Under the pieces are notes generated by a model. The model was not told where the DNA came from. It made no database searches and saw only the letters and a list, made by a program, of their open reading frames with translations. Shown here piece by piece: positions 4,466 to 49,112 of a DNA stretch of 64,000 nt; within the stretch, counting starts at the first letter, position 1, and every line of letters begins with the position of its first letter. The translations under genes were made by a program, and so were the position numbers. Source of the DNA: Patescibacteria group bacterium. GTDB lineage: Bacteria; Patescibacteriota; Minisyncoccia; Moranbacterales; UBA2206. The DNA is taken from positions 70,384-134,383 of the forward strand of contig JAKLIG010000003.1 in NCBI GenBank assembly GCA_022709735.1, in the 5' to 3' direction.

Positions 4466-5095
4466 TTATTTTGAATTATTTTTTAATTTTTCTTTAATTT
4501 TTTTAATTTTTTCGAGATTCTCATTATAATCATCGCCTTCGTCATTTTCCATAAGAGCAAAAACATAAGCTTCCAATACTTCGTTTGCTTTTCCTTTTTT
4601 TACAACATACCACTTGCAATTACTTCCTAAACAAGTCCTGACTCTTTCAGAAGCGCCGGTATCTTTACGCTCCTTAGATAATAGGCAATAAGCTTCCCAT
4701 AGAATTTCAACTCTTTCCCTGGTTCCATCTTTATTTTCTAAATCCAAATACTTTTTATTTTGATCAGTATTACTTTCTCCAGCGATAGGTTTCTCGTTTG
4801 GAAACTTTGGATTGAAATAAATTTCTCGTTGTTCGGGTGGATTATCTCTGAATTTTCTCATTCTTTTCCTTATATCTTTTATTTCAGGCCCCTCATTTCT
4901 TATCGCTTGCAAATCCGCTCTTAATTGCTCGGGAGTTTTTTCCTTTTTTTCTTTTGCGACTATCTTTGGTGAATTCTTTTCCTTTAATTCTATTCTTTGC
5001 ATTTTTTTAATTGGCAAATCCATTTGTTCTGACATTTTTTTAAATGAAATATTATACCTTGATTTTATCCTATTTTCCCCAATTTTGCAATTCAT
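4466..5095 (-). CDS. hypothetical Lys/Glu-rich protein
   Basis: It is a 209-aa ORF; the start may instead be the internal Met (MSEQMDL...). The start codon is directly abutted by one arm of a long-range inverted repeat (see findings). Confidence 0.45.
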   Translation of the reverse strand: MNCKIGENRIKSRYNISFKKMSEQMDLPIKKMQRIELKEKNSPKIVAKEKKEKTPEQLRADLQAIRNEGPEIKDIRKRMRKFRDNPPEQREIYFNPKFPNEKPIAGESNTDQNKKYLDLENKDGTRERVEILWEAYCLLSKERKDTGASERVRTCLGSNCKWYVVKKGKANEVLEAYVFALMENDEGDDYNENLEKIKKIKEKLKNNSK

Positions 5096-5276
5096 CCCGC
5101 ACCACTTTTGCGCTTTTTTAAATATTTTTATTTTCTACTACTAATTTTTACGCTCGACATAAACTTATAATTAAATTTATTTATTTTTTGCGCCTTTGGC
5201 GCAAGCACAAAAGTGGTGCGGGACAAGAAAAAACAGGACTTGATTCCCGTTTTTCTTTAATAAGATTATTTGTAAA

Positions 5277-5820: not shown

Positions 5821-7713
5821 TTAATTCTGGCTTTTTTTGTTTTCAAAATACCAGCTTAACACTTCTTTTGTCACTGGCAAGGCCGCGCTATTCCCTTCTC
5901 CTCCGCCTGGCACAATTACCGCTAACGCAATTTCCGGATTTTCATATGGCGCAAAAGCGATAAACCAAGAATGGGTTTTTCCTTCTGTTCCAAATTGGGC
6001 TGTTCCGGTTTTTCCGGCCACTGCCACCGGCAAAGTTTTGAGTGTTTGCGCTGTCCCAGATTCAATTGTCATTCGCATTCCTTCTCGCACCACATTCATA
6101 ACATCTGCTGATATAAAATTATTGTTTAATATTTCCGGATCAACTATTTTTTCCGTCCCATCATTTTTTCTGATTCGATTTACAATTCTCGGGGAATAAA
6201 CTGTTCCGCCATTGGCAAGCGTAGCAGAAAAATTTGCCAATTGAAGCGGAGTTGCCGTCACAAATCCCTGGCCGATAGCACAGTGATAGCTGTCGCCAAT
6301 ATACCATCTTTCACCCAAATTATTTAATTTCCATTCTTCACTAGGGATAAATCCCGGCGTCTCTCCCGGGATATCAATCCCGGTTAAATTTCCAAAACCG
6401 AATAAGTTTTCATATTTTTTCATTCGAGACATTCCAAGGCCACTTATATTTCCATATCCTCCGCCCAAAGTATAAAAAAATATGTCATTACTTTCAGAAA
6501 TCGCGCGTCTCACATCGCTTGGCGCATGCGCTTTCCAGTCTCGAAAACTAAAACTTCCAATATTTATCACTCCTCCCAGCCCATCAATTATCGTTTCCGG
6601 TGTAATTGTTTTTTCTGAAAGCGCCGCGGCCGCTATAGCCGGTTTTATAGTTGAGCCAGGCGGATAAATCCCCGCGATACTGCGATTAAAAAGCGGGAGA
6701 TTAGCATCACTGATTAAATTTTTATAATCCTCATTGGAAATTCCTTTGGCAAAAAGATTATTATCATAGCTTGGCAGATTCACCAGCGCCAAAACTCCGC
6801 CGTTTCTTGGATCAATCGCCACCGCGGCGCCAGTTTGCGCTCCAGTTTTTTGCAAAACTTCACTCAAACTATCAAAAAATTTTTTCTGCAGTTCTCCATT
6901 AATATTGAGCACGAGATCATTGCCAGCTGTTGGATTTATGACGCCTAGCGTCCTTTTTACATTTCCCAAAGAATCAACTTCTGCCTGCGTCGCGCCATAA
7001 ATTCCGCGAAGTTCTTTTTCATAATTTTTTTCCAATCCGCTTTTCCCGATATAATCAGTCATCAGATAATCTGAATTATCATTGAGTTCTTCCCGTGTTA
7101 TTTTTCCATCATACCCAATGACTCCGGAAAAAATCGGTCCGCTATCATAGGAACGGATGGCTGTTTTTTCTAATTTTATTCCAGAAAATTCTGCTTCCCT
7201 TTCCGCCACAATCAAAGCTTGGTCTCGACTGATGTTTTCCTTGAGAAGAACCGGATTTAATGATTTAGGATCTTGGCTCGAAAGCATAATTTCAATGTTT
7301 CCTGAATTCATATCTAAAATCCCCGAAAGTTTTTCGGCAATTTCTTTTTTCGCACTGTCGTCTTTCGGAAGATCAGCTGGAATAACAATTGCATCGATGC
7401 TGGGCGCATTTCCCGCCAAAACATTTCCAAGTTTATCATAAATTGTTCCTCGAGGAGCCTTGATAACCACCGATCTCACCCGATTGCCTTTAGATATTTC
7501 ACTGTAATATTTTCCTTGGTAAAAGTTCAAATAAATAACTCGGCCAGCCAAAATTAAAATAATCACCACAATTGCCAGCCACGCCAGAGAAAGTCCCTGC
7601 CTTTTGAAAGGCGATTCAATTATCGCCTCCTCTTTTTGCGTTATGGTCATAATCGAATCTTCAATTTCCGTTCCTTTTCTGATTCTTCTTTGATTGAAAA
7701 ATTTTTGAAACAT
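5821..7713 (-). CDS. mrdA: penicillin-binding protein 2 (peptidoglycan D,D-transpeptidase)
   Basis: The active-site motifs SXXK (GSTIKP) and KTG (AGKTGTAQ) are present, with an N-terminal TM anchor. It lies directly downstream of mreBCD. Confidence 0.85.
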   Translation of the reverse strand: MFQKFFNQRRIRKGTEIEDSIMTITQKEEAIIESPFKRQGLSLAWLAIVVIILILAGRVIYLNFYQGKYYSEISKGNRVRSVVIKAPRGTIYDKLGNVLAGNAPSIDAIVIPADLPKDDSAKKEIAEKLSGILDMNSGNIEIMLSSQDPKSLNPVLLKENISRDQALIVAEREAEFSGIKLEKTAIRSYDSGPIFSGVIGYDGKITREELNDNSDYLMTDYIGKSGLEKNYEKELRGIYGATQAEVDSLGNVKRTLGVINPTAGNDLVLNINGELQKKFFDSLSEVLQKTGAQTGAAVAIDPRNGGVLALVNLPSYDNNLFAKGISNEDYKNLISDANLPLFNRSIAGIYPPGSTIKPAIAAAALSEKTITPETIIDGLGGVINIGSFSFRDWKAHAPSDVRRAISESNDIFFYTLGGGYGNISGLGMSRMKKYENLFGFGNLTGIDIPGETPGFIPSEEWKLNNLGERWYIGDSYHCAIGQGFVTATPLQLANFSATLANGGTVYSPRIVNRIRKNDGTEKIVDPEILNNNFISADVMNVVREGMRMTIESGTAQTLKTLPVAVAGKTGTAQFGTEGKTHSWFIAFAPYENPEIALAVIVPGGGEGNSAALPVTKEVLSWYFENKKSQN

Positions 7714-17204: not shown

Positions 17205-17228
17205 CTATTCCTTTTATTTTTATTTATA

Positions 17229-17363
17229 AGATTTATGCATTTGTTTTAGAAATTACTCATTGCAAAACTTTATTTGAAAACCTAAACTTTAAGTAAACCA
17301 GAAGAAAATTAGCTTAATAAAAAAATTATGCTTTAGTAATTTCTAAAACAAATGCATAAATCT
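17229..17363. repeat. perfect 29-bp inverted repeat pair flanking a 77-bp spacer
   Basis: AGATTTATGCATTTGTTTTAGAAATTACT at 17229-17257 has an exact reverse complement at 17335-17363. Confidence 0.6.
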
Positions 17364-18358
17364 TACTCCACCACTTCCACCTCCGTCATCACCTTAGAAA
17401 CCTTAACAAGTTCCGCTTTTCGCAAAATCCAAAAAATAAAAGCAACGAAATATCCAACGATGGAGCCAAGAAATGATCCAAGAGAAGCTACAGTCAAGAA
17501 AAGTATGAAAGAGGCAATGAAAGGCAAAAATGGCAAGTTATCCGCTTTGAAACTAGTGGAAAAAAATTCATTTATCTTGCCGTTGATCATCTCCGAGAAA
17601 ACATCAGAAATTTTTTCCTGCCCGGTAAGCTTCATTCCGGTAATTTGAGAAAGGCTTTCTCTTTCTTGCTCGATAATCTTTCCTTGATCAGCTTCAAGCA
17701 TTTTTTTCATCTGCTCCTTGCTGACACCGGTATTTTTTTCGTTGAGCCCCTGGCTTTCTAAAATATTTCCCAAAAAACCTTCAGCATTCTGCTTGGATAT
17801 TTCCGAAATAAATTCATCCACGGTAAGTTCGGTTTTTTGATTATCTTTCATATCCGGATAAATCATCGGCAAAATTTTGGAAACCGCATCCCCTGTTTCG
17901 AATTTTGGAATAATATTTATGTTGTTATTATTTTTTATCTCCGAATAATATTGCGAAGTGATGGCAATTGAAAGCGCCAAAATTAACATCGTTTTCCCAG
18001 TACGCACCGATTTGGCAATATCAAATTTTATATTCAGCTTCAAATCCTTGGCAATTCTTTCTGCTCCCAAAAAAATAAGTAGAAAAGAAAAAGCTAGCGC
18101 CAATATATGCCAGAAAGAAAAAGTGAAAATTAGACTTGAAAAAAGGCCTATCGCCAATGCAGAAAAAATAAGATATTTTTGTTTGATAAGAATTGCGCCA
18201 AGTGCGATTGCAATGAAAAAAAGCGAAAACCAAATAGCCGGAATGAGCCAAGTGCTGGAGGCCGGAACATTAATTGCCTCATCAACATAAAACCACGAAG
18301 CCGCACCAAAAATAACAACAAGTCCAGCGATTATATATTTTGTAATTTGTGTTTTCAT
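17363..18358 (-). CDS. hypothetical membrane protein
   Basis: 331 aa with N- and C-terminal TM helices and a soluble central domain. Confidence 0.5.
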   Translation of the reverse strand: MKTQITKYIIAGLVVIFGAASWFYVDEAINVPASSTWLIPAIWFSLFFIAIALGAILIKQKYLIFSALAIGLFSSLIFTFSFWHILALAFSFLLIFLGAERIAKDLKLNIKFDIAKSVRTGKTMLILALSIAITSQYYSEIKNNNNINIIPKFETGDAVSKILPMIYPDMKDNQKTELTVDEFISEISKQNAEGFLGNILESQGLNEKNTGVSKEQMKKMLEADQGKIIEQERESLSQITGMKLTGQEKISDVFSEMINGKINEFFSTSFKADNLPFLPFIASFILFLTVASLGSFLGSIVGYFVAFIFWILRKAELVKVSKVMTEVEVVE

Positions 18359-18975: not shown

Positions 18976-19016
18976 ATTTTTTATTTAAAAAAATTATATT
19001 TTCTTCTCCTTACTGA

Positions 19017-19046
19017 CATTCTCACATTCTGCAGAATATGAGAATG
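19017..19046. promoter_or_regulatory. 30-bp palindrome CATTCTCACATTCTGCAGAATATGAGAATG (candidate operator), copy A
   Basis: It is a near-perfect dyad with one mismatch pair, centred on CTGCAG, 41 bp upstream of the methyltransferase ATG. A second copy lies at 49075-49104. Confidence 0.5.
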
Positions 19047-19835
19047 TTATTCTTTAGACATTATAAAATACTCGAGAACTTTCGGATGCAATTTCTTATT
19101 AGTCGCAATAATAGAATCAGCGTCCATGCTGATAGCCCGTCCATCAAAATTCGTTACAACACCCCCTGCCTCCTCGATGATAACTTTCACAGCAGCAATA
19201 TCATAGAGCTTGGCCTTGGCCTCAACCATTATATCCATTTTTCCTTGAGCAACTAAATGATAACTCCAAAAATCACCAAAACCTCTAGCGCTGTTTGCAT
19301 CGGCCGTTAATTTTGCCAAATTATCAATAATATTCTTTTTGTAGAAATGTTTTGGACCGCCAAATGTTATATAGGTCGACTCTATTTCTTGAGTTTGCGA
19401 TACGGATACTTTTTGTTCGTTGAGATAAGCACCGCCGCCTTTTTCTGCATACATTAGTTCTCCTAAAGCTGGTGCGTTAGAAACTCCAAGAATTATTTCT
19501 CTATCTTTCATCAAAGCAATTTGCGTTCCAAAAATCGGAATATGGTGGATAAAATTGTTCGTGCCGTCAATTGGATCGATTACCCAGACATATTGAGACT
19601 CCACATTTTCTTTTCCTGATTCTTCTCCAAAAAATCCGTGATCGGGAAATTCTTTCCTGATGGTCTCAATAATTATTTTTTCCGCCCCTTTATCTGCCTC
19701 TGTAACAAATGACCGATCCGCTTTCTGAGTCGATTTAATCTCTTTGGAATAATATTCCATTATTATTCTTTCCGCTTTCTTAGCTGCTTGAATAGCTACT
19801 TCTAAAAATTTACTTTGCGATTGTAATTGGTTCAT
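19047..19835 (-). CDS. inositol monophosphatase family protein (SuhB-like)
   Basis: The IMPase motifs WVIDPIDGT and GGxxY context are present. The product is 262 aa. Confidence 0.8.
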   Translation of the reverse strand: MNQLQSQSKFLEVAIQAAKKAERIIMEYYSKEIKSTQKADRSFVTEADKGAEKIIIETIRKEFPDHGFFGEESGKENVESQYVWVIDPIDGTNNFIHHIPIFGTQIALMKDREIILGVSNAPALGELMYAEKGGGAYLNEQKVSVSQTQEIESTYITFGGPKHFYKKNIIDNLAKLTADANSARGFGDFWSYHLVAQGKMDIMVEAKAKLYDIAAVKVIIEEAGGVVTNFDGRAISMDADSIIATNKKLHPKVLEYFIMSKE

Positions 19836-31725: not shown

Positions 31726-31798
31726 GCCCTCTTAGCTCAGTTGGCAGAGCGACGCATTCGTAACGCGTAGGTCATCAGTTCGATTCTGATAGAGGGCT
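31726..31798 (+). tRNA. tRNA-Thr (anticodon CGU); CCA not encoded
   Basis: It folds as a cloverleaf: acceptor GCCCTCT/AGAGGGC, anticodon loop TTCGTAA, T-arm ATCAGTTCGATTCTGAT, discriminator U. Confidence 0.85.
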
Positions 31799-31835
31799 CC
31801 GTTTACTCCGCTTGCCCCGTGGCAGCGAAGCTGCT

Positions 31836-32738
31836 TTACGGGGTCATATCCACCAGTCTTTGCCATTCGTCATTAACTAATTTTTGTATTTCTTCCAATA
31901 CTTTCTTATTTTCTTCTTTGAACAAATGTTTGAATCGTCCTTGCGTTTTCAAAAATTCGCTGACTGGCTTTGGTTTTTCCGTCGCGAAGTTTATTTTATA
32001 TTTTCCATTTTCGATTTCATAGAGTGGCCAGAAATTTGTTTCGGTTGCTAATTTGGCAAGAGCTACATATTCTGAAGTCGGAAATTTCCAATTATTAGTG
32101 CAAGGCGAAAAAACCAAAAGAAAAGTCGGTCCTTCGGTCTCCAGCGCTTTTTTGGCTTTCTTTTTTAGATCGGCTATATATGCCACATTCGCTTGCGCTA
32201 AATATGCAATTCTGTGAGCATTGACTATTTCCATTAAATTTTTCCGCGTTTCCATTTTTCCAAAAGATTTTTTTCCAACTGGTGTAGTTTCCGTGAAAGC
32301 GCCATAGGGAGTTGCTGAAGATCTTTGGTTTCCCGTATTCATATATCCCCCATTGTCATAACAAACATAAAGAAAATTATGCCCACGCTCCAGCGCGCCA
32401 GATAAGCTTTGAAGTCCAATATCATATGTTCCGCCATCCCCGCCAAACGCCACGAATTTTATTTTTTTCTTAATCTTGCCTTTTCTCTTTAGAATTTCAT
32501 ATGCTTTTTCCACACCGGAAATTGTTGCCGCGGCATTTTCAAAAGCGCTGTGGATATATGGCACTTTCCAAGCGGAGTATGGATAAAGCGTGGAAGTCAC
32601 TTCAAGGCATCCCGTGGCATTCGCCACCACCACTTCGTTTTTCGCCTCGCCTAAAATAGTGCGAACTATCGCCGGAAATCCGCATCCTGCGCAAGCGCTG
32701 TGTCCCGGAGCAAAATGTTTAGTTAATTCTTTGTTCAT
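31836..32738 (-). CDS. porB: pyruvate/2-oxoacid:ferredoxin oxidoreductase beta subunit (TPP-binding)
   Basis: It has TPP-binding GDG..N-type motifs (AFGGDGGTYDIG) and the Cys cluster of the POR beta subunit. Confidence 0.85.
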   Translation of the reverse strand: MNKELTKHFAPGHSACAGCGFPAIVRTILGEAKNEVVVANATGCLEVTSTLYPYSAWKVPYIHSAFENAAATISGVEKAYEILKRKGKIKKKIKFVAFGGDGGTYDIGLQSLSGALERGHNFLYVCYDNGGYMNTGNQRSSATPYGAFTETTPVGKKSFGKMETRKNLMEIVNAHRIAYLAQANVAYIADLKKKAKKALETEGPTFLLVFSPCTNNWKFPTSEYVALAKLATETNFWPLYEIENGKYKINFATEKPKPVSEFLKTQGRFKHLFKEENKKVLEEIQKLVNDEWQRLVDMTP

Positions 32739-33009: not shown

Positions 33010-34167
33010 TTACTTTATATATTTCCCTTTATGTTTCCCCAAAATCACATCCTCGATTTGTTTTTGAAAAATATCTCGTCCGCCGAGACCATAAATATAG
33101 CTTTTTATTTTTTTATTTATAGGTACGGACAGGTCGCGACCTGTCCCTACGAATGAATTTAATATTTCGCTGTAAAACGGTGGATTTGTTCCAATTGATT
33201 GCGCGCGATCAAGCACAATTATTTCTTTGGCATTTTTGAGAGCTTCGGCGATTTCTTTGTGTGGAAACGGCCTAAATAAGCCGATTTTCAATAGCCCTAC
33301 TTTTTCTCCGGATTCCCGCAATTTATCAATCACAACTTTGGATGTTCCGGACGCACTGCCAGTGAGCACTAATATTTTTTCTGCGTCTTCTGTCTGATAT
33401 TTTTCAAAAAATTCATATTTCCTTCCACTAATTTTCTCGAATTCTTTGGCAATTTTTTGATATTCTTCAAAAGCTTTTTCCATTGCTTCTTCTTCGTCAA
33501 TCCGAAATTCAAAATATGAATTTTGAAGCGCGACTGGTCCATAACTCACGGGATTGTCAGTGTCAAGAAGCGAATTTATTGCTTCAAATCTCCCAACAAA
33601 TTCTTTGACGATTTTTGTTTCCAAAATTTCCAAATTTTCCACCGAGTGCGAAGTGTTGAATCCATCCATAATTACCATGACCGGCAATTTCACTTTTTCC
33701 GCGAGTCTCATTCCAATAATTGTTTTATCATAAACTTCTTGCCCATTTTCACAAAAAATTTGAATCCAGCCGGAGTCTCGACAGCCCATCACATCAGAGT
33801 GATCGCCATGAATGTTTATCGGGGCTGCCAGTGCTCGCGCGCTAACAAGCATGAGAATTGGAAGCCTCATTCCGCTCGCAATATAGAGCATCTCGTGCAT
33901 CAAAGCCAAGCCTTGCGAACTTGTGGCCGTTGCTGTTCTTGCTCCTGCTGCACTCGCTCCAATCGCCGCACTCATGGCAGAATGTTCCGATTCAACTTTT
34001 ATTATTTCCGTATCCACTTCGCCATTCGCTTGAAAACCGGCATAAGTTTCAATAATCGGCGTTTGCGGTGTGATCGGATAAATCGGCATCACTTCCGGTT
34101 CGATTTGTTTCAAAGCCTCGGCCGCCGCTGCTCCACCAGTCAACGCTAATTTATTTTTTTTATTCAT
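33010..34167 (-). CDS. porA: pyruvate/2-oxoacid:ferredoxin oxidoreductase alpha subunit
   Basis: 385 aa with the POR alpha fold signature. It sits in porGDAB order. Confidence 0.85.
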   Translation of the reverse strand: MNKKNKLALTGGAAAAEALKQIEPEVMPIYPITPQTPIIETYAGFQANGEVDTEIIKVESEHSAMSAAIGASAAGARTATATSSQGLALMHEMLYIASGMRLPILMLVSARALAAPINIHGDHSDVMGCRDSGWIQIFCENGQEVYDKTIIGMRLAEKVKLPVMVIMDGFNTSHSVENLEILETKIVKEFVGRFEAINSLLDTDNPVSYGPVALQNSYFEFRIDEEEAMEKAFEEYQKIAKEFEKISGRKYEFFEKYQTEDAEKILVLTGSASGTSKVVIDKLRESGEKVGLLKIGLFRPFPHKEIAEALKNAKEIIVLDRAQSIGTNPPFYSEILNSFVGTGRDLSVPINKKIKSYIYGLGGRDIFQKQIEDVILGKHKGKYIK

Positions 34168-40712: not shown

Positions 40713-41483
40713 CTATTTTGTAATCATTTTATGTTTGAGACAACCACGATCGCTTTTAAATTCACAAGTTTTATAGCTTAAAAATCCCATTAATACCAAT
40801 AAAACAATCAATAAATAAATAAACTTCTTAAAATAAACGGATAATTTTCCATATTTATCATTGTATTTGGAATAATATATTTTTTTATATAAATGTATTG
40901 GCAAAACGCCGAACAGCAAGCTTAGTATTGGAGAAATAATCAGGCTGGCTATTAAAATTCCAATTAGTATAAAAAAGATCAGCCCAACTGTATCGCCATG
41001 TTTCCCTGAATTTGCCACGCAAATTCCAAAAATAATTGTATAAAAAAAAGAAATTGCAAAAAATATTGCAGAGCTTACAAAAAAATAAATTAAAAGCCAT
41101 TTCCAAGAAAAAGAACCATTAATCATCCTTTTGCGAGCAAGGTGTATTGAAATAAAAAAGAATGTTAGTAGAAAAGTTAATGATCCGATTGCTATAAACT
41201 CACCCCTGAATTCCAGTCTGTTTAATATTTTATTTAAATCTCCCAAGAAAAAAGAACTGGCGCTTAGATTAAAAACAAAAACTGCTTCCAAAATAATTAG
41301 TATAAAAATATTTTTTAATGTTTTTGAAAAACTTTCATAAACTTCATTTTTATTTTCAAATTTATAGTTAATTTTTTTATAAAAATATACGGGTAAAATA
41401 CCCATAAAAAAAATTATTAAAGGAAAAAGCAATAAAAAAAATGATAGCCCATAAGTTCCTGATGATATTTTTTCACAAATCAT
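40713..41483 (-). CDS. hypothetical membrane protein with an internal duplication
   Basis: 256 aa; LPVYFYKKINYKFENK... and LPIHLYKKIYYSKYNDK... are repeated halves. Confidence 0.45.
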   Translation of the reverse strand: MICEKISSGTYGLSFFLLLFPLIIFFMGILPVYFYKKINYKFENKNEVYESFSKTLKNIFILIILEAVFVFNLSASSFFLGDLNKILNRLEFRGEFIAIGSLTFLLTFFFISIHLARKRMINGSFSWKWLLIYFFVSSAIFFAISFFYTIIFGICVANSGKHGDTVGLIFFILIGILIASLIISPILSLLFGVLPIHLYKKIYYSKYNDKYGKLSVYFKKFIYLLIVLLVLMGFLSYKTCEFKSDRGCLKHKMITK

Positions 41484-41508: not shown

Positions 41509-42243
41509 TTATTTCAAAATAGTTTCCCCGTCTTGCGCGATTCTTCTGTTTTTTACCGGATCATCCGCCACAATTTCTCCGTCTTTCATATAAAGAATTC
41601 TTTTGGCGTGTTCAGCGGTATAAGTTTCATGTGTTACCAAAATAATCGTGTGCCCTTCATCATTTAATTTTTGAAGAATTTTCATTACTTGCAGTCCCGA
41701 TTTTGAATCCAAGTTTCCAGTCGGTTCATCGGCAAAAATAATTTCCGGATTGTTGACCAGCGCTCTGGCAATCGCCACCCTTTGTTTTTCTCCGCCAGAA
41801 AGTTGATTGGAAAGATATTTCTCACGATGTTCCATGCCGACAGATTTCAAAGCATGCATCACTTTTTCCTGATTGATTCCATCTGGCTCCTGGTCATAAA
41901 GAAGAGGAAGCTCAACATTTTCAAAAACAGAAGTTCTTGGCAGAAGATTGAATGATTGAAAAACAAAACCGATTTTTTTGTTTCTAACTTTTGCCAAAGT
42001 ATCATCGCTAAATTTAGCCGCATCCTTTCCTTCGAGCAAATATTTTCCTTCTGTCGGACGATCAAGTAACCCAAGAACCTGCATTAAAGTTGATTTTCCG
42101 CTACCGCTCGGCCCCATAATCGAAAGAAATTCCCCCTTCTCCACGACAAAATTCGCTCCGCAAAGCGCCGGAGTTTTCACACCTTCATTTTCATAAACCA
42201 TACAAAGATTTTTAACCTGGATTAAAGACATAATTACATCCAA
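41509..42243 (-). CDS. ABC transporter ATP-binding protein (MacB/LolD-type)
   Basis: Walker [10 protein letters not shown], the signature LSGGEKQRV and Walker [13 protein letters not shown] are present. The true start is probably Met5 (42231). Confidence 0.9.
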
Positions 42244-42782
42244 ATATTTTCAACATTATTTCTGTCCTGTTCCCAATTTTTCGGATTATTTAGAATATAT
42301 TCACGGATTTTGTTCAACGATATTTCATTTCGGATGATATGGTCGTAAAAAGATTTTTGCCATATCGTAGGGAACGCGTATACGCGTTCCTTTTTATTAT
42401 TTTTATCATATCCGTTTTCCATTCGCGTTACAGCAGCTTTGAAGCCCTGGACAATTTTTGATAATAACATTTTTGTTCTATTGGTATTTTTGGAACGCAT
42501 ATATGCGTTCCCTACATTAATATTGAAATTTATTTCAATAATTCCGTGAACATGATTCGGCATTATGACATATTGATCTAAATATATATTATCAAAATGT
42601 TTAGGGATTTCTAAATAACATTTTTGAACAATTTTCCCTAATTCATTCAAAATCATTTTTCCATTTTTTATTCCACCAAACAATTCTTCCCTATTTTTCG
42701 TGCAAATTGTCACAAAATACATCCCGTTCTGGGAATAATCGTAATTTTGCAAACGATTGTTTTTTCTATTTTTTAATTCCAT
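42234..42782 (-). CDS. REP-associated tyrosine transposase (RAYT) / IS200-like HuH Y1 transposase homolog
   Basis: It has the HuH motif MPNHVHGII, the conserved IWQKSFYDHIIRNE (compare E. coli RAYT IWQPRFWEHAIRNT) and a catalytic-Tyr region REYILNNP. It is embedded between the HlyD-like gene and the ABC ATPase gene. Confidence 0.8.
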   Translation of the reverse strand: MELKNRKNNRLQNYDYSQNGMYFVTICTKNREELFGGIKNGKMILNELGKIVQKCYLEIPKHFDNIYLDQYVIMPNHVHGIIEINFNINVGNAYMRSKNTNRTKMLLSKIVQGFKAAVTRMENGYDKNNKKERVYAFPTIWQKSFYDHIIRNEISLNKIREYILNNPKNWEQDRNNVENIWM

Positions 42783-43780
42783 TATTTCTCACTGGAAAGC
42801 ACCACCACATCTTCTCCGCCCTTGAGTCCTGACACAATTTCCACCATTCCGTCGTCCCCTTTCAGTCCAGCTTGCACATTCACTCGTTCCGTTTTATTTT
42901 CTGGTTTTAAAATTTCTACAAAATCTTGATTGCCATCATTTTTCACTGCTCGCAAAGGAATCATAACCGCATTATTTTTTTCCGCCGTATTAATATCAGC
43001 GTCCACACTCATTCCGATTTTCAATCTTTCATCCCATTTTGAAAGTTTTAATTTAGCTTTATAATAAACCACATCTTGAATGACAGTTGAAGCCGGTTCG
43101 ATTTCAAAAACTTCTCCTTCTAATTTTTCAGTTGACGGCAAAGCGTCAAAAGATATTTTGGCTTTTTGCTCGATTTTTACATCAATTACATCTGATTCTG
43201 AGACATCAATTTCAATAAATGGTTCGCCTAAACCGGAAATAACCAGAACAGAAGTATTGGCTACTGCATTTTCTCCAATTTCAATATTTTTCCTTGTAAC
43301 CGTTCCTTCAATCGGCGAATAAAGAATTGTGTCGCCTATCTGCTTTTTTATTTCATTAATTGCTCCCTCCGATTCTCTTATTTGCGCTCTTTGAGCTTCC
43401 CGCTGCGCATGATTGTAAGTGCCATCTCTTTTTTTCATATTTTTCAAAGTTTCATTCTGTACTTCAAGCTCGTGTTTAGCCTGCTCTAATTGCTCCAGCA
43501 ATACTCCTTTGTCAATCACCGCAATTTTTTGGCCCTTTGTAATATTATCTCCCACATCAACAAAAATAGACTCTACTCGCCCGCTTATTTTGAAAGACAA
43601 ATCTGATTCAATTTCCGGCTTGATTTCTCCAGTAGCGGAAACTGTTTTAGCAATAGTTCCGACTTTCGCTTTTTCAGTTGTGTAAGTAATTTTAACCGGC
43701 CTCGATTTCCAATAATAAATTCCGCCGATAATTAAAATTATCAGAACTAGAATTATATAGGTTTTTTTCTTCTTGGACAT
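42782..43780 (-). CDS. HlyD/MacA-family periplasmic adaptor subunit
   Basis: It has an N-terminal TM segment, a coiled-coil hairpin and lipoyl/beta-barrel domains. It is the first gene of the efflux operon. Confidence 0.7.
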   Translation of the reverse strand: MSKKKKTYIILVLIILIIGGIYYWKSRPVKITYTTEKAKVGTIAKTVSATGEIKPEIESDLSFKISGRVESIFVDVGDNITKGQKIAVIDKGVLLEQLEQAKHELEVQNETLKNMKKRDGTYNHAQREAQRAQIRESEGAINEIKKQIGDTILYSPIEGTVTRKNIEIGENAVANTSVLVISGLGEPFIEIDVSESDVIDVKIEQKAKISFDALPSTEKLEGEVFEIEPASTVIQDVVYYKAKLKLSKWDERLKIGMSVDADINTAEKNNAVMIPLRAVKNDGNQDFVEILKPENKTERVNVQAGLKGDDGMVEIVSGLKGGEDVVVLSSEK

Positions 43781-43787
43781 AAATGCC

Positions 43788-43900
43788 TGTCATTGCGAGG
43801 GAGCGTAGCGACCGTGGCAATCTCGGACTTTAATACGCCAGACTCGAAATTTTATTTATGATTTTAATTGCGAGATTGCTTCGCTTTGCTCGCAATGACA
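43788..43900. repeat. intergenic imperfect inverted repeat (TGTCATTGCGAG...CTCGCAATGACA)
   Basis: Arms of about 37 nt with matching ends (GTCATTGCGAG / CTCGCAATGAC) flank a 45-nt AT-rich loop. It fills the rnhA-HlyD spacer. Confidence 0.45.
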
Positions 43901-44506: not shown

Positions 44507-46225
44507 TTACTTTTCCGATATTTTTATATCAATCAATTTCAATTGCATTTTCTTATTCCCATTCCACTCGTCTTCTTCTAAATTAAAAACTATATCTATT
44601 TTATCATCTTTTTTAATTTGGGGGAATTTCTCGGCTAAGGAAAATCCAATCGCTTCAAAAATTTTCGGGCTTTTGCCTTCGCCCTTAAGCGCTAATTTCA
44701 AATGCTTGCTTCCATTTCCCACGATTTTCAAATCAACAACTTGCATATTTTTTACGCAAAATACCGGCTGTTCATTGCCCATTCCAAAAGGTTCCATTTT
44801 CTTGAGATCTGAAATTAGTTCCCAATCAATATCATCCGCTGTAATTTCAGCATCCATTTCAAGGTTTAGCGTAATTTCTTTTCCAGCCAATTCTTCCTCG
44901 ACCAATTTTGAAATTTTTTCACAAAATTTTTCAATATTTTCATGCCTCACTCTCACTCCCGCTGCTTGGGAATGCCCGCCGAATTTAATGAGCATGTCCG
45001 AACATTTTTCTATTATTTCCACAATATTTATTTCCGGAACGCTTCGAAGCGATCCAACGAATTCTTTTTCTTGCCGTTGCATAATCATGCTGGGCTTTTG
45101 AAATTCATCCGTTATTTTTCCCGCTACCAATCCTAAAATTCCCACCGGCCAATGCTCGTTTTCCGCAAAAATAAATTTTCTGTCCTTGAAAGAATTTTCC
45201 GCCAAAATTTGCACCTCGCGAAAAATTTCGGAAGTTATTTTTTGACGGTTTTGATTTTTGCTTTCCAGTTCAAGTGCCAAAACGCGCGCCACTGCTCCTT
45301 CTTTTTCTATTAATAATTTATAAGCTGCATTAGCGTGATCCATCCGGCCGGCCGCATTGATTCTCGGCGCAAGTTGAAAGGCGATTTTTCGCGTGTCCGG
45401 AATATTATTTTCCGAAATATCAATTCGACCGACTTTGAATATTTCTTGAAATCCGGCTCTTTTAGTTTTCGAAAGTACCAGAAGCCCGTATTTTACCAAT
45501 ATTCTATTTTCAGAAATCAATGCTACGCAATCAGCAATAGTTCCAAGCGCCACGAGATCAAGTAGCCACTTCAATTGATCTTTTTTTTCTGGCGCGATTT
45601 TCTGATAAAGGCCTTGCGCTAATTTGAAAGCCACGCCCACTCCAGCCAAATCCTTAAAAATAAAACCTGAATTTGGAATATTCGGATTTATAATCGCATG
45701 GGCTTTTGGAAGAATTTCCGGCGCATGATGATGGTCAGTAATAATAACATCCATTCCAAGTTCCTTTGCCTTTTCCACTTCCGAAACATTTGTTATTCCA
45801 GAATCAACAGTGATGATGAGATTTACTTTTTCTTTTTGAAGATAATCAATAGCATTTTCATTCATCCCATAGCCTTCCAACTGACGATCTGGAATATAGC
45901 AAATAATATTTTTGAATCCTAAATTAGTTAGCGTTTCATAAATAAGTGCAGAAGCTGAAACTCCGTCCGCGTCATAATCTCCAAAAATTGCAATTTTTTC
46001 TTCTTTAGCTTTGGAAATTCTTTCCACTGCTTTTTCCATTCCGGAAATTTGAGACGGATCGCCCAAATCTTTTTCGTAGTCAAAATCAAAATATTTTTCA
46101 ATTTCTTCTATTTTTTCCAAACCGCGATTTTGAAGCAATTGCAAAACAATCGGATTATATTTTTCCAATAAATCTGCAGAAAAATTTATTTTATCAAGTG
46201 AAGTTTTAGTTTTCCAGATTTTCAT
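44507..46225 (-). CDS. recJ: single-stranded-DNA-specific exonuclease RecJ
   Basis: The DHH motifs (GDYDADGV, ITDHHH) and a DHHA1 domain are present. The product is 572 aa. Confidence 0.85.
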   Translation of the reverse strand: MKIWKTKTSLDKINFSADLLEKYNPIVLQLLQNRGLEKIEEIEKYFDFDYEKDLGDPSQISGMEKAVERISKAKEEKIAIFGDYDADGVSASALIYETLTNLGFKNIICYIPDRQLEGYGMNENAIDYLQKEKVNLIITVDSGITNVSEVEKAKELGMDVIITDHHHAPEILPKAHAIINPNIPNSGFIFKDLAGVGVAFKLAQGLYQKIAPEKKDQLKWLLDLVALGTIADCVALISENRILVKYGLLVLSKTKRAGFQEIFKVGRIDISENNIPDTRKIAFQLAPRINAAGRMDHANAAYKLLIEKEGAVARVLALELESKNQNRQKITSEIFREVQILAENSFKDRKFIFAENEHWPVGILGLVAGKITDEFQKPSMIMQRQEKEFVGSLRSVPEINIVEIIEKCSDMLIKFGGHSQAAGVRVRHENIEKFCEKISKLVEEELAGKEITLNLEMDAEITADDIDWELISDLKKMEPFGMGNEQPVFCVKNMQVVDLKIVGNGSKHLKLALKGEGKSPKIFEAIGFSLAEKFPQIKKDDKIDIVFNLEEDEWNGNKKMQLKLIDIKISEK

Positions 46226-46971: not shown

Positions 46972-49029
46972 TTAAATAATTATTTTAACATCCACGGCAG
47001 TCGCCTCCTGACCATTATTATAAACAAATAGCGGGTTTATATCAAACTCGCAAATTTCCGGAATTTCCAGCGATAGCGCGCCAATTCCCATAAGAATTCT
47101 GGCTGTTTCTTCCAAATTATATTTCCTTTGCCCGCGAACGCCTTGGAATAAAAATTTAATTTTTCCTTCTGTCAAAGATTTTTCCGTTTCACCTAAATTC
47201 AACGGTGGCACAAGATAGTCCACTGTTTTCAGAAATTCCGCATAAATTCCACCCAAACCATAAACCACGACCGGTCCAAAAATTTCATCTTTTTTTATCC
47301 CAACTATAAGTTCCATTCCTTTTTCTGCCATTGGTTGGATTATAAATTTGCTTCCCGGAAAGCTTGTATGCATTCTGGATATAGCCTTAGAAAGTTCTGA
47401 TTCATCTTTGATGCCCAAAATCAAACCATTCTTATCGGTTTTATGCAAAATTTTGTCGCTATCAATTTTGAGTGCCACTGGATACCGAAAAGTTCTTTCC
47501 CGATAATTTTGAATTTCAAAACTTTCCACTGTAGAAATTCCGTATAATTTCATAACCTCCGCGCTTTCTTCAAAATATAGCGCTTGGCGATTTTCTGATT
47601 TGGCACGCTTTATTATTTCTAAAACTTTTTCTTGCCTTTTTTTATTGATTATCTGTGCTTCGCTTTTTATTTTTAAATTCTTAGATTCGCTCCATTTATA
47701 ATATTCGTCAATCGCCAAAACTGCGCTGTCAGGAAAATTAAAATTACATATTCCACTTTGTTTTAGCTTTGCAATTCCCTTTTCCACTTTCTCTCCGCCC
47801 AAAAAAACTGTCGAAATTATCTTGTCAGTTTTTTCTTTGAATTTTATTATCTCCGAAGCAATTTTAAGAACTGGCGTTTGCTCTTGTGGAGTAAGCAGAC
47901 AAATGACTGAACCGATTTCTTCGACTTTGGAAATTATTTCCAAAACATTTCTGTATCGATCAGCTGTGGCGTCACCCAAAAGATCAATCGGATTTTCCAC
48001 TGATGATTCCAGCGGAAGAATTTCTCGCAATTTATTTTTTGTTTCTTCGTCAAAATTTGCCATCTGTATATTTTTTCCAGAAAAAGCATCAGAAGCCAAA
48101 ACTCCCGCTCCGCCGGCGTTCGTTATAACCGCCACTTTTTGGTTGGGGAATGTTTCAGAAAAACTAATAAGACTTAGTAGATTGAAAAATTCTCCCAAAT
48201 TTTCTGCCCGAATTATTCCAGCTTTTTTTAAAACTGCCGAAACAATTTCGTCATCGCCGGCAAGCGCCCCAGTATGCGAGCTGATGGCTTTTTGCGTTTT
48301 TTCATTTTTTCCCGCCTTGAGAATAACCACTGGCTTAACACGAGAGACATTTCCAACAATTTCAACAAATTTTTTTCCACCTTTTATTCCTTCAAGATAC
48401 ATTCCAATCACTTTCGTATTTTCGTCTTTCGCTAAATATTCGAGCATTTCTTCTTCCGCAATTTGCATTTTGTTCCCGACAGAAACAATGTTGGAAAATT
48501 TCAATCCTTCTTTTTTTGCTTTGTCCATAAGCGCTACCGCGAGAGCTCCCGATTGCGAAACAAAAGAAATGTTTCCGGCTTCCGGCATCCCGCCGGCAAA
48601 AGAAGCGTTGAGCTTGAGGCTTGGAATAATAAATCCCAAACAATTCGGTCCCAAAATATTCAAATCATTTTCTTTGGCAATTTTCGCCAAGTCTTCTTCC
48701 TGCTTTCTTCCTTCTTTGCCAATTTCAGAAAACCCCGCCGAAATCACAATATAGTTTTTTATTTTTTCGGCATTGTTTTTTATTTCTTGATTTACAAACT
48801 TCGCCGGTATGGCAATAATCGCCAAATCAACTTCTTTTTCAATTTCATTTAAAGATTTATGACATTTCTTCCCAAAAATTTCATCGTATTTCGGATTCAC
48901 TAAAAAAACTTCGCCTTGATATCCAAGCTCGATTATATTTTTTGCAATCACATTGCCAATCTTGCCTTCTTCTGATGAAGCCCCGACAACCGCGATTGAT
49001 TTAGGATTAAAAAGTTTTTCTAAGTTCAT
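46972..49029 (-). CDS. acetyl-CoA synthetase (ADP-forming), fused alpha/beta subunits
   Basis: It has an N-terminal CoA-binding domain (IAVVGASSEEGKIGN), succinyl-CoA-synthetase-like domains and a C-terminal ATP-grasp. The product is 685 aa. Confidence 0.8.
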   Translation of the reverse strand: MNLEKLFNPKSIAVVGASSEEGKIGNVIAKNIIELGYQGEVFLVNPKYDEIFGKKCHKSLNEIEKEVDLAIIAIPAKFVNQEIKNNAEKIKNYIVISAGFSEIGKEGRKQEEDLAKIAKENDLNILGPNCLGFIIPSLKLNASFAGGMPEAGNISFVSQSGALAVALMDKAKKEGLKFSNIVSVGNKMQIAEEEMLEYLAKDENTKVIGMYLEGIKGGKKFVEIVGNVSRVKPVVILKAGKNEKTQKAISSHTGALAGDDEIVSAVLKKAGIIRAENLGEFFNLLSLISFSETFPNQKVAVITNAGGAGVLASDAFSGKNIQMANFDEETKNKLREILPLESSVENPIDLLGDATADRYRNVLEIISKVEEIGSVICLLTPQEQTPVLKIASEIIKFKEKTDKIISTVFLGGEKVEKGIAKLKQSGICNFNFPDSAVLAIDEYYKWSESKNLKIKSEAQIINKKRQEKVLEIIKRAKSENRQALYFEESAEVMKLYGISTVESFEIQNYRERTFRYPVALKIDSDKILHKTDKNGLILGIKDESELSKAISRMHTSFPGSKFIIQPMAEKGMELIVGIKKDEIFGPVVVYGLGGIYAEFLKTVDYLVPPLNLGETEKSLTEGKIKFLFQGVRGQRKYNLEETARILMGIGALSLEIPEICEFDINPLFVYNNGQEATAVDVKIII

Positions 49030-49074
49030 CTTTTTGTTTTAATTTATTTTCTATAACAATTACTAGCCTATTAA

Positions 49075-49104
49075 CATTCTCATATTCTGCAGAATGTGAG
49101 AATG
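49075..49104. promoter_or_regulatory. 30-bp palindrome CATTCTCATATTCTGCAGAATGTGAGAATG (candidate operator), copy B
   Basis: It is the exact reverse complement of copy A (19017-19046) and lies 45 bp upstream of the acs ATG. Confidence 0.5.
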
Positions 49105-49112
49105 TTCTTTTT

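Follow-up and report, generated by a model that had tools for sequence, protein, structure and literature searches.

Our analysis of a 64-kb stretch of Patescibacteria DNA (hereafter the window), which makes up ~37% of one contig of a metagenome-assembled genome (MAG), indicated that the minus-strand gene at 42234–42782 probably encodes a functional tyrosine transposase associated with repetitive extragenic palindromes (REPs) (RAYT, or TnpA_REP; Nunvar 2010) of subclass 2.4 and that its cognate GTAG-footed REP hairpins are built in frame into surface loops of the protein, between the HuH motif and the catalytic tyrosine. The 182-amino-acid (aa) protein was identified from its open reading frame (ORF), Pfam and Foldseek matches, and the ratio of nonsynonymous to synonymous substitution rates (dN/dS).

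The first internal REP, hp1 (42492–42515, minus strand), reads GTAG+GGAACGCATATATGCGTTCC in the sense of the gene and encodes V90–S97 (VGNAYMRS) in the β3-αC loop just after the HuH motif. The second, hp2 (42367–42390, minus strand), reads GGAACGCGTATACGCGTTCC+CTAC and encodes E131–T138 within KERVYAFPT in the αC-β4 loop just before the conserved WQ. Read on the plus strand, these become GTAG+GGAACGCGTATACGCGTTCC at 42367–42390 and GGAACGCATATATGCGTTCC+CTAC at 42492–42515. Both 20-bp palindromes (10-bp arms) are exact and lie 101 nt apart, the 24-nt arms of hp1 and hp2 are complementary at 22 of 24 positions, and the two peptides use different frames relative to the palindrome. A first-pass annotation, made from the letters of this DNA alone, had described an inverted doublet of GTAG/CTAC-bearing palindromes 101 nt apart in the RAYT ORF, translated in different frames (KERVYAFP and GNAYMRSK); its coordinates were exact, and the frames were borne out as VGNAYMRS and KERVYAFPT.

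A degenerate 24-mer with up to three mismatches found just the hp1 and hp2 sites in the 64 kb, each on both strands, and had no match in 100 dinucleotide-preserving shuffles. Between them, hp1 and hp2 supply both feet of a double-foot REP, one on each hairpin. The usual single double-foot palindrome (GTAG-stem-stem'-CTAC) appears to have been replaced in this Moranbacteria clade by two half-footed palindromes. On the antisense (plus) strand, hp2 presents GTAG, the hairpin, and a T-run and is terminator-like there only; we detected no sense-strand terminator inside the RAYT gene.

Identity of the encoded protein

The protein matched the Pfam family Y1_Tnp (PF01797) with 37.8 bits against a cutoff of 23 (E = 2.3e-9), and the REP-associated tyrosine transposase model REP_Tyr_transpos (NF047646) was by far its best NCBIfam model, while the IS200 model NF033573 gave only 20 bits against a cutoff of 55. 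An AlphaFold2 model from 40 homologues had a mean predicted local distance difference test (pLDDT) score of 77 and a predicted template modeling (pTM) score of 0.74. Its best Foldseek match in PDB was 4er8_A, Escherichia coli TnpA_REP bound to a REP hairpin, with a root mean square deviation of 2.2 Å over 151 columns, and the next matches were the IS608, ISDra2, and IS200 transposases; 4er8, 2xm3, 2a6m, and 2vjv were all hit at E values of about 1e-6. Sequence identity to E. coli TnpA_REP is about 16%, and a PDB search with the sequence alone recovered 4er8 marginally (E = 5e-4), so that the fold comparison was needed. The Pfam score and the top Foldseek match confirmed the first-pass assignment to the RAYT-type Y1 HuH proteins.

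The HuH motif is H77-V-H79 in MPNHVHG (42546–42554, minus strand), in which H77 and H79 are invariant alignment columns and which has the subclass 2.4 form NH[IFV]H. W141-Q142 (42357–42362, minus strand), with W141 invariant, aligned to IWQPRFWEH of 4er8 and corresponds to E. coli W94 and Q95. By the same alignment, the catalytic tyrosine is Y162 in REYILNNP (motif Y162-ILNNP, 42282–42299, minus strand) and not the tyrosine of SFYDH; Y162 and N166, both invariant, are equivalent to Y115 and N119 in DYIYINP of 4er8. Equivalents of the GTAG-contacting residues and of N119 are all present, with W141, Q142, D147, R151, and N166 matching E. coli W94, Q95, E100, R104, and N119. W94 and Q95 are described as GTAG-contacting residues of E. 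coli TnpA_REP in PMC6006769, which also reports Asp for Glu, as in D147 for E100, in one TnpA_REP subclass. The spacer from HuH to WQ measures 61 residues versus 32 in E. coli TnpA_REP, a difference of ~29 aa in place of the ~20 aa first estimated up to IWQ.

In the AlphaFold2 model, residues 89–103 of the hp1 loop had pLDDT values below 50 and residues 121–140 of the hp2 loop values of about 62–67. Both hairpin peptides are modeled in loops, with the doublet bracketing helix αC. The αC-β4 loop is described as adjoining the REP-recognition region in other subclasses (PMC6006769).

Subclass 2.4 is characterized by the signature NH[IFV]H / WQ / YIxNNP and by "double foot" REPs (PMC6006769). The window protein has NHVH, WQ, and YILNNP and is 182 aa long versus a median of ~194 aa. 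Because of these signature motifs and the shared hallmark of in-frame REPs, we assign it to TnpA_REP subclass 2.4, known as RAYT group 4 in the scheme of Bertels, Gallie, and Rainey 2017 (PMC5581495). With dN/dS of 0.06–0.16 against eight relatives, the protein is under strong purifying selection, and the ORF encodes an intact Y1 HuH enzyme. It is the sole HuH ORF of the window, and an identical protein is present in public data, labeled "transposase," from a 172.8-kb contig of a Candidatus Moranbacteria MAG.

Conservation and covariation of the internal hairpins

Eight close relatives with available DNA (L081, L082, and L161–L166), at about 64–84% aa identity to the window RAYT, all carry the two palindromes at the same codons; a metagenome scan with the single RAYT protein had yielded only L081 and L082 as close relatives. 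Between them, the hairpins differ in sequence. We observed hp1 with GCATATATGC in the window, L081, L082, and L161, with GCACATGTGC in L162–L165, and as GGGGACGCATATTTGCGTCCC in L166, and hp2 with GCGTATACGC in the window, L081, and L082, with GCGCATGCGC in L161 and L165, and with GCATATATGC in L162, L163, L164, and L166. Across the window gene and the eight relatives, stem changes amounted to four compensatory pairs and no one-sided change, and 99.2% of the cells were paired.

Synonymous sites between these genes are saturated (dS of 1.0–2.9), and third-codon-position identity was 0.50–0.67 outside the hairpins versus 0.88–1.00 in hairpin codons. All 48 hairpin nucleotides (2 × 24) are invariant among the window, L081, and L082, while the two relatives' ORFs are elsewhere 81–82% identical to that of the window. 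The encoded peptides vary (AYM/AHV/AYL for one and VY/IY/AC for the other) while palindrome symmetry persists. Because symmetry and synonymous sites are kept as the peptides change, selection or an equivalent homogenizing force acts on the nucleic acid, and these comparisons indicate that what selection maintains in each palindrome is the nucleic acid sequence rather than the peptide. The first-pass annotation had reasoned that orthologues keeping the codons without the symmetry would speak against REPs in the ORF; we observed the opposite, with codons and peptides changing and symmetry kept. Its suggestion that a REP doublet forming a hairpin (REPIN) had invaded the RAYT gene is, as a recent event, contradicted by the relatives, in which both hairpins occupy the same codons despite saturation at synonymous sites.

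The same data bear on whether the palindromes arose by chance or through selection on the peptides VGNAYMRS and ERVYAFPT. The fair conservation of these peptides among the closest relatives would suit that explanation, but the shuffled sequences gave no match at all, symmetry outlasts the peptide changes, synonymous positions are conserved, and distant homologues with unrelated peptides have the same GTAG...CTAC architecture. We consider this explanation refuted.

We also asked which helix the arms form. Thermodynamic prediction favors a long REPIN-style stem between hp1 and hp2, but pairing of this type reached 93.8%, which equals the shuffle mean, with no covariation. Covariation therefore supports the two local hairpins and not the long stem. 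Of the REPIN-like doublet initially proposed for this gene, the inverted GTAG-footed pair in the ORF stands, while the long stem lacks covariation and the doublet has no other copy in the window.

In-frame REPs across subclass 2.4

REPs lying in frame within tnpAREP genes, between HuH and Tyr, have been described as the hallmark of subclass 2.4 (Quentin, Siguier, Chandler, and Fichant 2018, BMC Genomics 19:475, PMC6006769). According to the same source, the REP of this subclass is a long hairpin with a 5' GT[AG]G foot and often a "double foot" with 3' C[TC]AC. We examined homologous DNA from 80 loci of reference genomes of many phyla and 80 loci from metagenomes, counting as a tagged hairpin any stem of 8 bp or more that bears a GT[AG][GA] or [CT][TC]AC tag. 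Tagged hairpins were present in 122 of 154 HuH-to-WQ segments versus 370 of 7,377 (5%) background 240-nt tiles from the same loci. Most of the 80 reference-genome loci have a perfect 28- to 29-bp GTAG-N10-(loop 0-4)-N10'-CTAC palindrome at this place, with stems wholly different between lineages (for example, GGGCGAAAAA, AGACGCAAAA, GGGCACGGCA, and GGGCAATTCA). Among the 40 aligned homologues, the peptide that follows the HuH strand is variable too (VGNAYMRS(LQ), VGNAHVRS, VGNAEMRS, TGNKDFCSLQ, and VGADLVSA...GQTQGLSLQ). A two-hairpin version like that of the window occurs in L044, L046, L057, L065, and L076, and a few reference loci have no hairpin.

The identical 28-mer also lies just outside the gene in seven loci (L001, L004, L007, L013, L032, L077, and L080), and near-identical copies do so in four (L027, L038, L039, and L053). 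Because the same 28-mer flanks the gene in many loci, we take the internal palindrome to be a copy of the gene's cognate REP. The in-frame REP hairpins of the window gene are therefore a correct rediscovery of a published hallmark, present in most of the 154 homologous segments and in many phyla, and the gene is not the oddity that it had first been taken for. New here are the comparative evidence that the hairpins are under selection, the splitting of the doublet around αC, the scarcity of extragenic REPs, and the pairs of filled and empty insertion sites. Our literature search turned up nothing on RAYTs or REPINs in Patescibacteria, and PMC6006769 was the one paper it yielded that discusses subclass 2.4.

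These comparisons also speak to an RNA-level role, in which hairpins in the mRNA attenuate translation, set stability, or serve as an RNase target independently of RAYT recognition and so hold transposase output low in the host operon. The predicted fold is strong (minimum free energy of -50.1 kcal/mol, z = -6.0), the compensatory changes suit an RNA helix as well as they do a DNA helix, the gene probably relies on transcription of its host operon, and the IS200 transposase is limited by mRNA structure (cited in PMC3733652). However, the GTAG/CTAC feet are conserved family-wide though an RNA hairpin has no need of them, extragenic REPs with these same palindromes adjoin the gene in many loci, which speaks for recognition of DNA by the enzyme, and a stable hairpin within the operon would also hit the downstream ATPase gene. 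We consider an RNA-level role quite unlikely.

Among the homologous loci, two contigs carry two subclass-2.4-type RAYT genes each. Those of L011 (2502–2687 and 10217–10408) have the stems GGGCGGTTCG and GGAACAGGCA, and those of L041 (10208–10417 and 11422–11646) have different internal REPs, as would be expected if every enzyme had a REP type of its own. Termite-gut metagenome homologues (L111 at 439 and 702; L158 at 1052 and 1327) have half-footed GTAG+GGGACGCCGCCCTCGGCGTCCC ... GGGACGCCGAGGGCGGCGTCCC+CTAC pairs ~265 nt apart, so that doublets can bracket a larger part of the gene than in the window.

Extragenic REPs around the genes of this clade

A search of the window for GG[AG]ACGC...GCGT[TC]CC hairpins found none outside the RAYT ORF, and across the window and the flanks of L081, L082, L161, and L162 (about 47 kb together), the GGAACGC-type hairpin is confined to the RAYT ORF. 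One extragenic copy lies directly after the RAYT stop in L165, followed by a T-run, and a related hairpin, GGGCCGCATATATGCGGCCC+CTAC, lies in the 3' end of the upstream gene in L166. Extragenic REPs seem to be rare or absent in this clade, and conversion from outside copies is for this reason an unlikely source of perfect palindromes.

This scarcity matters for the view that internal REPs are neutral passengers, inserted by RAYT activity into tolerant loops and functionless there, with symmetry kept by gene conversion or hairpin-templated repair, which is the view of subclass 2.4 internal REPs held in PMC6006769. The loops are of low confidence and peripheral in our model, in line with that source, and a minority of family members have no tagged hairpin at this place, implying that it is dispensable. 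In-frame REPs also occur in unrelated genes, both generally (PMC3733652) and in the window itself, in the 2-oxoacid:ferredoxin oxidoreductase (OFOR) alpha gene at 33123–33150, and in other phyla the identity of the internal copy to flanking copies suggests homogenization. In this clade, however, donors for conversion are scarce, with one extragenic copy in about 111 kb around the genes, and hp1 differs from hp2 in every genome, so the two do not homogenize each other. Retention at the same codons beyond synonymous saturation and across phyla is likewise unexpected for a neutral insert of 24–28 nt. Weighing both sides, we regard neutral passengers as somewhat unlikely.

Insertion into a MacAB-type operon

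The RAYT gene lies between the gene for a periplasmic adaptor (HlyD/membrane fusion protein [MFP]; 42782–43780, minus strand; Pfam HlyD_D23 and HlyD_3; orthologues P0122–P0128) upstream and that for a MacB-type ATP-binding cassette (ABC) ATPase (41509–42231, minus strand; Pfam ABC_tran) downstream. The RAYT ATG overlaps the adaptor TAA by 1 nt (TAATG), and the ATPase ATG at 42231 comes 2 nt after the RAYT stop. The first reading of the locus had named both neighbors correctly, as the Pfam matches verify, but the 10-bp overlap with the ATPase ORF that it reported was an artifact of a longest-ORF TTG start at 42243, since the orthologues begin with MSLIQ... at the ATG at 42231.

Through adaptor homologues, we found three syntenic loci, L167 (80% identity) and L168 and L169 (68%). 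L168 and L169 have the gene order of the window (CoA ligase, response regulator, RecJ, RNase H, adaptor, ATPase, and two MacB genes), and L167 is a 2.6-kb contig with RNase H, the adaptor gene, and the first part of that for the ATPase. RAYT is absent between adaptor and ATPase in all three, as the first-pass annotation had proposed checking, and the adaptor stop lies 4–8 nt before the ATPase ATG. The empty site reads gagaaaTAA-TTTT-ATGTC, with TTTT/TCCT/TTTTGTTT as spacers across L167, L168, and L169, and the filled site of the window reads gagaaaTA[ATGGAA...GGATGTAA]TTATGTC. By comparison with the empty sites, the left junction is gagaaaTA followed by ATGGAA in gene sense (42778–42788, minus strand) and the right junction is ...GGATG TAA TT ATG... 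(42229–42236, minus strand). The insert is the 549-bp ORF alone, with TAA or TAAT at both junctions, and the DNA similarity that the window shares with L081 and L082 runs from the ATG to the stop codon. These comparisons show a lineage-specific insertion of the ORF alone into a MacAB-type operon, where it separates the adaptor gene from that of the ATPase.

In L081, L082, and P0007, RAYT lies directly after the OFOR beta gene, with a tRNA gene next in L081 and L082, whose RAYTs are 81–84% identical to that of the window. The corresponding junction of the window (31801–31835), between OFOR beta (31836–32738, minus strand) and tRNA-Thr (31726–31800, plus strand), is empty and has no RAYT, and OFOR alpha is 82% identical between the window and L081. 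Because the OFOR junction is empty in the window and filled in L081 and L082, the same gene occupies different sites in related genomes. In other relatives, RAYT follows glycosyltransferase genes (L161 and L164, with a Wzy_C gene next in L161 that overlaps RAYT), an LTD/PKD-domain gene (L162), or yebC (L165); the upstream genes in L163 and L166 have no family on record. The upstream genes thus differ in family between loci, and in all eight relatives RAYT begins at -11 to +8 nt relative to the upstream co-oriented stop, often as ATGA. RAYT divergence (84% aa identity) matches that of a housekeeping neighbor (82%), which suggests that RAYT relocated within the lineage and was not a recent import.

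The ORF ends showed neither terminal inverted repeats nor hairpins, and a comparison of the sequence preceding all nine start codons gave only a loose TGA(A)/TTTGAA-like pattern, which, with the TAA or TAAT at the two window junctions, is insufficient to call a target site. By analogy, the clean filled and empty sites resemble the seamless "peel and paste" of Y1 enzymes.

The first-pass annotation had also considered a domesticated RAYT acting as part of the efflux operon. A component or regulator of the operon would fit the shared orientation, the 1-nt overlap upstream, the 2-nt spacing downstream, and the lack of an internal sense terminator. But syntenic orthologous operons do without RAYT, the relatives have it, at 65–85% identity, in unrelated operons (OFOR, glycosyltransferase/Wzy, LTD/PKD, and yebC), and the same class of operon position gathers 23S_rRNA_IVP and PDDEXK_3 genes in relatives. 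Domestication is largely refuted by these findings, and we give it very little credence.

Small genes are wedged into the same MacAB-type operon at 6801–7205 and 8569–8991 of L168 and at 6801–7205 of L169. In these relatives, a 23S_rRNA_IVP four-helix-bundle gene lies between ATPase and MacB and a PDDEXK_3 gene between the two MacB paralogues, and the window carries a membrane-like ORF of 256 aa (40713–41483) in the corresponding place. Small genes of selfish appearance seem to accumulate in this operon.

Other repeats in the window

A second REP, of a different family, lies in the OFOR alpha ORF (33010–34167, minus strand) at 33123–33150 as a double-foot palindrome, GTACGGACAGGTCG joined to CGACCTGTCCCTAC. 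It is in frame and encodes VGTGRDLSVP, the OFOR alpha of L081 has no such segment and is 5 aa shorter there, and its stem resembles the in-ORF REPs of CPR (candidate phyla radiation) RAYTs in L010 and L045. We found no second RAYT in the window that could own this REP.

A 9-bp near-palindrome with a GGAACGC half at 45036–45055 in recJ has no GTAG/CTAC foot and one mismatch, and we treated it as chance; it encodes GSLRS, which we take to be a conserved RecJ motif. A 113-bp element at 43788–43900, in the spacer between the RNase H and adaptor genes, has a 12-nt inverted repeat (TGTCATTGCGAG...CTCGCAATGACA) and is the sole copy in the window. It presumably resembles the "cattgcgag...gcaatctc" repeats common in CPR genomes. 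The ~32-nt palindrome ACATTCTCA[C/T]ATTCTGCAGAAT[A/G]TGAGAATGT has copies 30 kb apart at 19016–19047 and 49073–49106, the latter just downstream of a CoA-ligase-type gene (46972–49029, minus strand), and these may be shared terminators or another small repeat family. We also observed a perfect 31-nt inverted pair (17227–17257 and 17335–17365, 77 nt apart) and a 21-nt inverted pair, 95% complementary (5095–5115 and 5203–5223, 87 nt apart), the second of which may be the "88-bp TIR element" (TIR, terminal inverted repeat) mentioned in the first-pass annotation.

A model for a RAYT with built-in REPs

In the explanation that we favor, a functional subclass 2.4 RAYT carrying its cognate REPs in frame, the gene would depend for its expression on read-through from the host operon and on translational coupling; its neighbors adjoin it on either side, leaving no promoter space around RAYT. 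The enzyme would recognize the hairpins as single-stranded DNA through the GTAG foot, in the manner of E. coli TnpA_REP (4ER8; Messing et al. 2012; Ton-Hoang et al. 2012), which reportedly recognizes GTAG-footed hairpins in this form. The internal copies would be protected cognate sites that always travel with the gene, inseparable from it because their deletion would damage the ORF, so that enzyme and site would be inherited together. Extragenic REPs might be seeded or re-templated from them, and/or the enzyme might use them to sense or limit the gene that encodes it. In the ~111 kb around the genes of this clade, they are nearly the sole REPs left.

Several points weigh against this explanation. 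The protein scored 69 bits with the REP_Tyr_transpos equivalog, under the curated cutoff of 80, plausibly because of the loop inserts. Neither a flanking REP nor an extragenic copy is present in the 64-kb window, so the RAYT-REP association that defines the family is presumptive in this genome. That the enzyme would bind or cleave its internal hairpins is argued from analogy with E. coli TnpA_REP, the covariation sample is small (six distinct sequences), and hairpin-templated repair or conversion from unseen extragenic copies could also keep perfect palindromy. Finally, the model offers no route by which an ORF-only unit without terminal hairpins would move.

A bolder version of the model, which we think unlikely as a whole, is that this RAYT internalized its REPs and dropped the extragenic population, that the in-ORF hairpins are selected cis-sites that the enzyme binds or cuts, and that the bare ORF is a self-contained unit that relocates seamlessly between gene boundaries in the manner of "peel and paste," with clean empty sites left behind, living on host transcription and translational coupling. 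If true, it would be a "REPtron folded into one reading frame" and the first Y1 transposase with recognition sites maintained by selection inside its own coding sequence.

Our findings extend subclass 2.4 to CPR/Patescibacteria and provide comparative evidence that the internal hairpins are under selection at the nucleic acid level, beyond being merely tolerated passengers. The pairs of filled and empty sites indicate that a RAYT ORF without flanking REPs changed position within its lineage, which bears on whether and how RAYT genes move and on the role of RAYTs in genomes without a REP population. Our findings also hold a warning for annotators, in that GC-rich peptides such as VGNAYMRS(LQ), VGTGRDLS(L/V)P, or GQTQGLSLQ in AT-rich genomes are translated REPs.

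Comparison with known systems

The window gene is most readily compared with subclass 2.4 as described in PMC6006769, with which it shares the signature, a length of about 180–195 aa, a variable β3-αC insertion of REP sequence, and GT[AG]G...C[TC]AC double-foot REPs placed in frame between HuH and Tyr in a subclass scattered over many phyla. It differs in its CPR host (Candidatus Moranbacteria), which lies outside the phyla named for the subclass in the parts of that paper drawn on here. It also has two half-footed REPs bracketing αC, the second in the αC-β4 loop, instead of one double-foot REP, and is an ORF-only insertion abutting host genes, with no flanking REPs and almost no extragenic copies in the available sequence. 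In a REPtron, the gene is flanked by its cognate REPs, an arrangement that is absent from the window and present in relatives from other phyla.

Similarly to E. coli TnpA_REP (YafM, 4ER8), the protein has a Y1 HuH fold with the HuH, WQ, Asp/Glu, Arg, Tyr, and Asn residues and, by analogy, a GTAG-footed hairpin as the type of substrate. Unlike the window gene, E. coli TnpA_REP belongs to subclass 2.2, has no intragenic REP, and has flanking REPs that number in the hundreds across the genome. REPIN-RAYT systems from Pseudomonas and Enterobacteria (Bertels and Rainey 2011) resemble the window gene in having inverted REPs ~100 nt apart with GTAG outermost and arms that pair in the predicted fold. 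The doublet of the window is, however, coding and inside the RAYT itself, its covariation supports local hairpins, and no REPIN population was seen in the sequence at hand.

With the TnpA proteins of the IS200/IS605 family (IS608 and ISDra2), the protein shares the fold and catalytic motifs, and their seamless "peel and paste" would fit the empty sites. The window gene differs in having no subterminal hairpins at the ends of the unit and no tnpB and in being present as a single copy in the window; because the unit is the ORF alone with host genes abutting, no space is left for left and right ends (LE/RE). Finally, intragenic insertions of REPs and of Rickettsia palindromic elements (RPEs) (Di Nocera et al. 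2013, PMC3733652) are likewise short palindromic repeats tolerated in frame in loops. The RAYT insertions differ from these in that the host gene would itself be the repeat-recognizing enzyme, as the analogy with TnpA_REP suggests, and in that the insert lies at one position across a whole protein subclass.

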